A DNA stretch of 64,000 nucleotides from the IMG/VR virus record IMGVR_UViG_3300037189_028117, positions 18,977-82,976 of that record. One strand, given 5' to 3'. The translations under genes were made by a program, and so were the position numbers. Positions 44,871-45,922 of this stretch are shown piece after piece. The notes beneath the pieces were generated by a model that had not been told where the DNA came from, searched no databases, and saw only the letters and a program-made list of their open reading frames with translations. Numbering within the stretch: position 1 is the first letter of the stretch; every line of letters starts with the position of its first letter. Source of the stretch: a virus. Lineage: Duplodnaviria; Heunggongvirae; Uroviricota; Caudoviricetes.

Positions 44871-45413
44871 TTGCAAAACTTTAAGAATAAAAGACCAAAT
44901 AAAATATATATACCTTATAATGATAGAATTAAAGCAACTCACGTTAGATGCATAGATTCTTCAAATGAAAATATAGGTGTCTTACCTATAATGGAAGCTA
45001 TAGATAAAGCTTTCTCTGAAGATTTAGATTTAGTTCAAATTTCTGAAGGAAAGGATGGTATACCAGTTTGTAAAATAACTGATTTTGGAAAGTTTAAATT
45101 TGAATTTCAAAAGAAACAAAAAGAGACTGCTAAGAAACAAAGAGAAGCAATTATCAAAGTAAAAGAAATAAAATTAAGACCTTCTACAGAAGATAATGAT
45201 TTAAAAATAAAAGCAGAAAAAGCTAATGAATTTATAAATGATGGTGATAAAGTAAAAATATTTATAGTATTTAGAGGAAGAGAAATGGCTCATAAAGAGT
45301 TGGGTTACGAAACTTTAAATAAATTTTTAAGTTTTATACCGGAGAAAAATGTTTATAATCAATCTTTTCAAGGGAAAATTCTATCAACAATGATAGAGAA
45401 GAAAGCAAAATGA
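44871..45413 (+). CDS. infC: translation initiation factor IF-3 (TTG start)
   Basis: 'IPVCKITDFGKFKFEFQKK..KKQ...IKVKEIKLRPSTEDNDLKIK...DGDKVKIFIVFRGREMAH' colinear with bacterial IF-3. Confidence 0.85.
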   Translation: MQNFKNKRPNKIYIPYNDRIKATHVRCIDSSNENIGVLPIMEAIDKAFSEDLDLVQISEGKDGIPVCKITDFGKFKFEFQKKQKETAKKQREAIIKVKEIKLRPSTEDNDLKIKAEKANEFINDGDKVKIFIVFRGREMAHKELGYETLNKFLSFIPEKNVYNQSFQGKILSTMIEKKAK

Positions 45414-45922
45414 TAATTACAGATATAGATAAGCTTTCGGTTTTATCAGAAGATGTAAGTCCGGAAGAAGCTCTTACTATAATTGACTTATTAGAAAAAG
45501 AATTAGAAAATTCTGCAAAGCAAGGTAGTCCAGGCATTGGATTAGCTGCGCCACAAATAGGTATAAATAAAAAGGTAGCTATAGTTAGAGTTGGTGACAA
45601 TAAAATAAATCTTGTTAATTCTAAAATAGTAGAAAAAATAATACCTTTCGAATTTGATGGTGAAGGATGTCTTTCATTCCCTGGAATGATTAAAAAAACT
45701 AAAAGGTACAAAGAAATAGTTGTAGAGAACGAAATTTATCCACACAAGTTTATTGCAACTGATTTGTTGGCAGTTGTAATTCAACACGAAATTGGTCATT
45801 GGAATAACGAACTTTTGCCTTATATAGAAGATCTTAATCCAAAAGTAAAACAGAAATTACGACCGAATGATCTATGTAATTGTGGTAGTGGTAAAAAATA
45901 TAAAAAATGTTGTGGAGCATAA
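45410..45922 (+). CDS. def: peptide deformylase with C-terminal SEC-C zinc motif
   Basis: PDF motifs '[10 protein letters not shown]', 'EGCLSFPG', 'QHEIGH'; C-terminus '[14 protein letters not shown]' = SecA-type SEC-C. Confidence 0.8.
   Translation: [170 protein letters not shown]

Follow-up and report, generated by a model that had tools for sequence, protein, structure and literature searches.

The C-terminal helix found in peptide deformylase (PDF) from Escherichia coli docks on the ribosome between uL22 and uL32 (PMC12690207), and viral PDFs have been described as devoid of a ribosome-interacting region (PMC5591237). Two phage enzymes, those of Vibrio phage Vp16 (5MTC) and cyanophage S-SSM7 (3UWA), conserve the catalytic motifs, lack the full ribosome-binding helix and end shortly past the third motif (137-154 aa). 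The other closely related systems are proteins with a SecA-like metal-binding domain (MBD; Pfam SEC-C, PF02810) at the C-terminus. The MBD of SecA is a ligand of SecB and, when tested by itself as SUMO-MBD, sediments together with 70S ribosomes; SUMO-CTT can be crosslinked to uL23, next to the exit tunnel, and no longer binds ribosomes once its Cys residues are modified (Jamshad 2019, PMC6620043). AscA/YecA binds ribosomes 1:1 with micromolar affinity and also binds SecB, both in an MBD-dependent manner, and MBDs have been called an evolutionary toolkit, fused to 18 or more functions (bioRxiv 2020.07.21.215244). The methionine aminopeptidases (MAPs) of many bacteria carry a SecA-like MBD as well, which has been cited as support for a ribosome role (bioRxiv 613315). 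Here we describe a gene encoding a PDF core followed by a SecA-type MBD (hereafter PDF-MBD), located at 45410..45922 (+) of a 64,000-nucleotide stretch of Caudoviricetes DNA (positions 18,977 to 82,976 of IMG/VR record IMGVR_UViG_3300037189_028117). This whole stretch is referred to as the window.

We found no paper in the searchable literature on a deformylase combined with SEC-C, SecA or MBD. A paper on huge phages reports PDF and initiation factor 3 (IF3) genes, but not the PDF-MBD architecture or trigger factor, and neither of these is mentioned in two overviews of jumbo phages. Automatic annotation already tags both domains on metagenomic homologues, and the architecture is visible in databases. 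PDF-MBD is made of two well-known parts in a combination that is undescribed, phage-restricted, and widespread.

Deformylase core and C-terminal tail

The PDF-MBD gene is a single open reading frame (ORF) from ATG to TAA that encodes 170 aa plus stop, with both domains inside one protein. Pfam Pep_deformylase (PF01327) matched residues 20-135 (45467..45814, +), the catalytic core, with 80 bits against a gathering threshold of 22.8 (E 1.9e-22). All three PDF motifs (GxGxAAxQ, EGCLS, and QHExxH) are intact on the + strand: motif 1 is GIGLAAPQ (residues 42-49, 45533..45556), motif 2 is EGCLS (residues 85-89, 45662..45676) with the metal ligand Cys87, and motif 3 is QHEIGH (residues 125-130, 45782..45799) with the ligands His126 and His130 and the catalytic Glu127. 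Across 116 family members, G42, G44, L45, and Q49 of motif 1, G86, C87, L88, and S89 of motif 2, and H126, E127, and H130 of motif 3 are invariant. The AlphaFold2 (AF2) model, built on the 116-sequence family alignment, reached a mean predicted local distance difference test (pLDDT) score of 92.8 and is confident over the PDF core (residues 1-135, pLDDT above 90). When this model was compared with the PDB by Foldseek, the top 50 matches were all PDFs (E about 1e-11 to 1e-12, template modelling score about 0.7). Type 1B PDFs, namely E. coli Def (1BS4/3K6L) and Vibrio cholerae Def2 (3QU1/9QFT), gave the best matches in both sequence and structure and share the fold, the three motifs and an eta3-like turn after motif III, yet they are only about 31% identical to the window protein. 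The NCBIfam equivalog TIGR00079 (pept_deformyl) scored 83.1 bits, below its cut-off of 103.95; the protein belongs to a divergent phage lineage with an altered C-terminus. On the basis of its sequence and predicted structure, the gene is best read as encoding a catalytically competent PDF.

The tail of the protein (residues 153-169, 45866..45916, +) matched Pfam SEC-C with 32.9 bits against a cut-off of 20.4 (E 5.8e-8). It also matched solved SecA zinc-binding domains directly, including those of E. coli (1SX0/1SX1, E 8e-5), 1TM6, and chain I of 1OZB, which is a SecA peptide in complex with SecB, as well as the C-terminal MBD of YchJ (9L6B_C, E 2.8e-6). Compared with E. coli SecA, 14 of 19 residues are identical. 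The defining features of the MBD (bioRxiv 613315) are all present, that is, the CxCx8C[CH] ligands (Cys156, Cys158, Cys167, and Cys168) and the conserved Ser and aromatic residue (Ser160 and Tyr164, corresponding to SecA Ser889 and Tyr893), and the motif ends two residues ahead of the stop codon. AF2 placed a small confident knuckle at residues 151-170 (pLDDT about 90). When all six frames of the window were scanned with a regular expression, the SEC-C motif came up once only, so a chance match is not an issue; the same in-frame tail recurs in more than 100 independent contigs, which argues against an assembly artefact or a separate ORF. The original prediction, made from the window sequence, had proposed a PDF fused in one protein to a canonical SEC-C motif, and both halves of this proposal were borne out, as the two Pfam domains lie above their curated cut-offs in the same frame. 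The outcomes that had been named as fatal to it, a Cys motif failing the SEC-C profile or belonging to another ORF, did not occur. The AlphaFold check that it had called for returned a PDF fold with a separate C-terminal knuckle and no C-terminal helix.

The tail resembles that of SecA in the CxCxSx6C[CH] pattern, the conserved Ser and aromatic residue, the lysine cluster, and its position at the extreme C-terminus after a flexible linker (PF02810; 1SX1, 1TM6, 1OZB). Unlike in SecA, however, it is carried by a 15-kDa enzyme instead of the SecA motor, and in the family the fourth ligand is mostly Cys, not His. The tail also has an autoinhibitory role in SecA, of which the analysis gave no sign in PDF-MBD. 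YecA/AscA, YchJ, and the MAP-MBD proteins bear the same portable C-terminal MBD, and MAP-MBD is the direct pathway neighbour of PDF; these proteins are cellular, whereas PDF-MBD was found in phage and metagenomic sequences only.

Between core and knuckle lies a linker (residues 136-152, 45815..45865, +) formed by an eta3-like turn and the basic remains of the type 1B helix, which correspond to its first two turns. In a BLASTP alignment with E. coli Def (whose sequence was verified as identical to 3K6L_A), window residues 143-151 (NPKVKQKLR) aligned with Def residues 148-156 (SPLKQQRIR), which make up helix turns 1-2. The alignment stops at E. coli residue 156, leaving the last 13 residues of the Def helix without counterpart. 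In the AF2 model, the motif-III helix (118-132) is followed by a 3-residue turn at the eta3 position (136-138) and by no further helix, and linker residues 141-150 have low confidence (pLDDT about 67). The original prediction that the ribosome-binding helix is absent thus needs to be amended. On the one hand, the truncation is supported by the missing residues and by the model, and the tail does align with SecA as had been anticipated. On the other hand, the start of the PDF helix can still be aligned over residues 143-151. Taken together, alignment and model indicate a helix cut after about two turns to a basic remnant, not cleanly absent, in which the half said to contact uL32 is gone and the MBD stands in its place. 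The protein therefore has no full type 1B C-terminal alpha-helix, as about nine aligned helix-start residues remain and none of them is helical in AF2. Nor does it have a Vp16-like short end, since 40 residues, folded MBD included, lie beyond motif III. Like the PDFs of Vp16 and S-SSM7, it is phage-encoded, with conserved catalytic motifs and without the full helix, but its family adds a different candidate anchor.

Family size and conservation of the tail

A word-indexed search returned 1997 homologues, the best 120 of which were nearly all 166-180 aa long and annotated with PF01327 and PF02810; one metagenomic protein was 99% identical to the window PDF-MBD. An exhaustive HMMER search of 1.84 billion cluster representatives gave 7585 matches at E ≤ 1e-3 and 578 at E ≤ 1e-10. 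Among the best 150 representatives, 113 carry a canonical CxCx8C[CH] tail at their very C-terminus (with 1-20 residues beyond the motif), about 8 have a long-loop variant, and about 25 are short and tail-less. The distance from motif III to the first Cys has a median of 22 residues in the family (range 16-33). The logo of the 113 tails, which opens with K-[IV], is nearly identical to the E. coli SecA MBD: the Ser is conserved in 99%, the aromatic position is Tyr/Phe in 94%, and four lysines are conserved in 77-96%, while 85% have Cys and 15% have His as the fourth metal ligand. The family cores, in contrast, share only ~43% identity on average. A tail so well conserved on diverging cores is what one would expect of a domain that contacts the same conserved surface of a partner as the SecA tail does.

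Our first scan of IMG/VR used a pattern derived from the tail and was repeated with a core-only alignment to remove the tail bias; the counts that follow refer to the matches listed in this second scan. The clade of the window protein (50 loci, core identity ≥47%) comprises 33 loci with a canonical MBD, 9 with a variant MBD and 8 without MBD, i.e., 42 of 50 with an MBD, and the domain is also retained in a second large clade. Seven of the eight tail-less members end 12-13 residues past motif III, and the remaining one (L205) has a 36-residue tail without the motif. A tail hidden behind a frameshift or a recoded stop was considered for these eight and rejected, as they have ordinary stops and no motif in any downstream frame. 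In a neighbour-joining tree of the cores (without support values), tail-less forms occupy at least three places among MBD-bearing sisters, which suggests repeated loss of the MBD. These trees span about 115-135 columns and were used only for the interspersion of tail-less forms, not for dating the fusion. The MBD is an accessory module and not an obligatory part of the PDF family, since close relatives without any tail exist. Among more distant viral PDFs, 27 of 30 lack the MBD and end either in a long basic helix-like tail (e.g., ...LEKAKKDRKLAERYKKR) or in a short Vp16-like end. No viral PDF with both an MBD and a long basic tail was found among these matches.

Some family members depart from the common architecture. 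In a minority, the CxCx8CC tail is replaced by a long-loop MBD variant, CPCG-x12-13-C[CH] (e.g., CPCGKINPVTGKPFKFKKCCG), which is carried by the proteins P0130, P0131, P0149, P0150, P0179, and P0204 and by the loci L182, L196-L198, L208, L210, L212, and L221. Two proteins, P0176 (530 aa) and P0275 (526 aa), have an insertion of ~350 aa within motif III (...VVIQHE/C...HN/CDHLNG..., slashes marking its borders) that resembles an intein carrying a homing endonuclease and interrupts the HExxH helix. P0152, P0235, and P0252 have N-terminal extensions of 80-130 aa with acidic/Lys-rich repeats and, in P0252, a CxxC...CxxC zinc-ribbon-like segment.

Distribution among phages and cells

PDF-MBD was found in metagenomic and IMG/VR phage contigs only, and relatives of the PDF occur on IMG/VR contigs of up to 480 kb, i.e., in huge phages. 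In deposited phage genomes (50,697 records), no listed PDF match extended past query residue 155 and none reached the Cys motif, and the best plasmid-borne PDFs stop no later than query residue 150. Among the GTDB matches listed, those closest to the window core come from scattered bacterial phyla, and none of 81 PDF ORFs from the best 80 GTDB loci has a SEC-C motif, which is a weak argument against cellular copies. An exact-sequence search with 17 representatives retrieved metagenome sources only.

One protein (MCZ2224475.1, P0058), assigned to a 'Chitinophagales bacterium', was considered as a cellular copy and rejected because its contig has the gene order of a huge phage: two ClpP genes, topoisomerase, S21, PDF-SEC-C, thioredoxin, DnaG, Mre11/Rad50, Cas4, trigger factor, and DNA polymerase III alpha. 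This contig is probably a phage mis-binned into a metagenome-assembled genome. The gene neighbourhood of this protein (L161, an 85-kb contig from Logan ERR15459716) is syntenic with the window.

Genome neighbourhood

The window has ~26% GC and tightly packed genes, nearly all of them on the + strand. No tRNAs were detected in it, and a nucleotide comparison with deposited phages gave no match. It belongs to the genome of a huge phage and also encodes DNA polymerase III alpha, topoisomerase I, Mre11/Rad50-like proteins, DnaG, Cas4, an FtsK-like ATPase, an RNA ligase, RlaP, alanine dehydrogenase, and an SPFH protein.

The PDF gene is directly preceded by a full-length homologue of IF3 (infC; 44871..45413, +), recognised by TIGR00168 (158.5 bits, cut-off 60), IF3_N, and IF3_C. 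Its stop overlaps the PDF start codon by 4 nt (ATGA), and the two genes are probably co-transcribed. IF3 directly precedes the PDF gene in 13 of the 50 clade loci, namely in 8/8 tail-less and 5/42 MBD-bearing members, figures that are uncorrected for phylogeny. Downstream lies a thioredoxin gene (46135..46437, +; Pfam Thioredoxin, 76.6 bits), and a thioredoxin follows the PDF gene in 37 of 42 MBD-bearing and 5 of 8 tail-less clade members. A functional link between thioredoxin and the MBD was rejected on these grounds, the synteny being alike in tail-less relatives. An ORF of 73 aa (45907..46128, +) without significant Pfam match shares its first 16 nt with the end of the PDF gene and takes up the space before the thioredoxin; in some relatives (e.g., L161), the thioredoxin gene comes directly after the PDF gene, without this ORF between them.

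A full-length trigger-factor homologue is encoded ~10 kb downstream of the PDF gene (55453..56670, +), with Trigger_N and Trigger_C domains and an end-to-end match to TIGR00115 (169.6 bits, cut-off 180.2). It keeps a GFRxGxxP-like ribosome-docking loop (PGFRTGKA). This protein matches PHROG 26774, which is annotated as 'unknown function', and the words 'trigger factor' are not mentioned in the huge- and jumbo-phage papers that we searched. Relatives also encode S21. No other MBD-tagged protein was found within the plus/minus 6-kb flanks of 80 viral PDF loci or elsewhere in the window.

Three further features of the window were noted. A probable auxiliary metabolic gene encodes the alanine dehydrogenase (34362..35411, +; AlaDh_PNT_N and AlaDh_PNT_C, E 3e-64), which is well conserved and matches PHROG 25893 ('unknown function'). 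A T4-type RNA ligase domain (12223..13398, +) and an RlaP-family nucleotidyltransferase (28419..29312, +) suggest a capability for phage RNA/tRNA repair. Finally, GC content is 0.34 at 4001..8000 against about 0.25 elsewhere, and this segment, with an AAA ATPase (3997..5310) and a DUF2201 metallopeptidase/VWA-like protein (5385..6836), was possibly acquired more recently.

Possible roles of the tail

The reading that we hold to be somewhat on the probable side is that of an active phage PDF in which the MBD replaces the helix as ribosome anchor; both ribosome binding and functional replacement are inferred by analogy with other MBD proteins. A flexible and mildly basic linker of about 20 residues and then the MBD (CxCxSx6CC, for Zn or Fe) take the place of most of the helix. 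The MBD would dock on the negatively charged ribosome surface beside the exit tunnel, in the uL23 region, as the MBDs of SecA and YecA do, and the linker would let the catalytic domain sweep the tunnel exit and deformylate nascent chains during infection. The protein would probably be co-expressed with the overlapping phage IF3 gene. The nascent N-terminus processed by PDF is the one on which MAP acts next, and this makes PDF-MBD the natural counterpart of MAP-MBD. An exchange of anchors is favoured by the truncated helix, by the occurrence of the alternative C-termini on different proteins and by the strong conservation of the MBD surface. The genomic context also favours it, with the overlap with IF3, a nearby trigger factor that has a uL23-docking loop, and S21 in relatives.

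Several points weigh against this reading. The PDF of Vp16 complements an E. coli def mutant without any C-domain (PMC5591237), so ribosome anchoring is not strictly required for a viral PDF, and the eight tail-less relatives (core identity 50-56%) indicate that the MBD is dispensable in some phages. The region contacted by the MBD, uL23, differs from the native PDF site at uL22/uL32 and is common to trigger factor, the signal recognition particle, and SecA, including the phage's own trigger factor. The affinity of AscA for the ribosome is only micromolar (bioRxiv 2020.07.21.215244). Judging from its counterparts, the same MBD would bind SecB too, which makes the partner ambiguous.

This ambiguity leads to an alternative that we regard as unlikely, in which the MBD would bind the host SecB tetramer or another Sec partner and so bring PDF to SecB- or translocon-bound precursors, such as envelope or secreted proteins of the phage. 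Such a role would fit a tail that matches chain I of 1OZB, the SecA peptide in the crystal with SecB, and that retains the entire SecA MBD consensus, GRND lead-in included. In AscA/YecA, the MBD mediates SecB binding, and MBDs have been proposed to add new functions to the Sec machinery (bioRxiv 2020.07.21.215244). However, the SecA MBD and its SecB-contact residues are conserved in many species without SecB, and this prompted the search for a second partner, the ribosome (PMC6620043). Moreover, deformylation is co-translational, with no known rationale for a SecB-bound PDF, and the tail is invariant across very diverse phages and environments. A low-power single-sequence scan found no SecB in PDF-MBD phage contigs, with two weak partial matches in unrelated contigs. 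Host Sec factors also figure in a bolder proposal, to which we give little credence, that PDF-MBD is both an enzyme and a molecular decoy within a phage exit-tunnel toolkit (IF3, PDF-MBD, and trigger factor, with S21 in relatives) re-equipping host ribosomes. By mimicking the tails of SecA and YecA, it would take up the MBD site near uL23, titrate SecB, or do both, displacing host SecA-type factors and diverting ribosomes from host secretion to the maturation of phage proteins.

The MBD might instead act in cis as a metal or redox module that senses redox state or binds iron, and that regulates, protects or metallates an oxidation-sensitive Fe(II) site, possibly together with thioredoxin. In vivo, SecA-like MBDs bind iron by way of their conserved Ser (bioRxiv 613315), YchJ, which has the same MBD, is reported as a regulator sensing reactive oxygen species (PMC13377102), and thioredoxin is a conserved downstream neighbour. 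We nevertheless consider this role quite improbable: thioredoxin is kept equally with and without the tail, so that the synteny does not track the MBD; in the model, a low-confidence flexible linker separates the MBD from the core and the domain is not packed on the active site; and conservation is as high in the surface lysines as in the metal ligands, pointing to a binding surface beyond the metal site. The same conservation bears on the idea of a near-neutral appendage, a small, stable, basic cap derived from the 3' end of a host secA-like gene and conferring general affinity for RNA or anionic surfaces, or stability, without a specific partner. Tail-less close relatives, a Vp16 PDF that needs no C-domain (PMC5591237), and a motif promiscuously fused to many protein families (bioRxiv 2020.07.21.215244) would all agree with it. 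Surface residues other than the ligands (N, S, K, K, Y, K, K) are, however, extremely conserved across cores that are ~43% identical, and the tail is kept in 42/50 clade members and in the second large clade; both point to purifying selection on a specific interaction surface and make a near-neutral cap very doubtful.

Implications for phage deformylases

The generalisation that viral PDFs are without a ribosome-interacting region needs to be qualified, as a large group of phage PDFs carries a different candidate anchor. These PDFs amount to a natural domain-swap, in which the same core may bear a basic helix-like tail, an MBD or no tail at all, and in which MBD-bearing and tail-less sisters occur within one clade. 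The family makes it testable whether the SecA-like MBD is a general portable tag for the exit site, which has so far been argued mainly from SecA, YecA, and the architecture of MAP, and likewise how phage PDFs reach nascent chains. With IF3 next to it and trigger factor close by, PDF-MBD would extend the takeover of translation by huge phages to co-translational processing at the tunnel exit.

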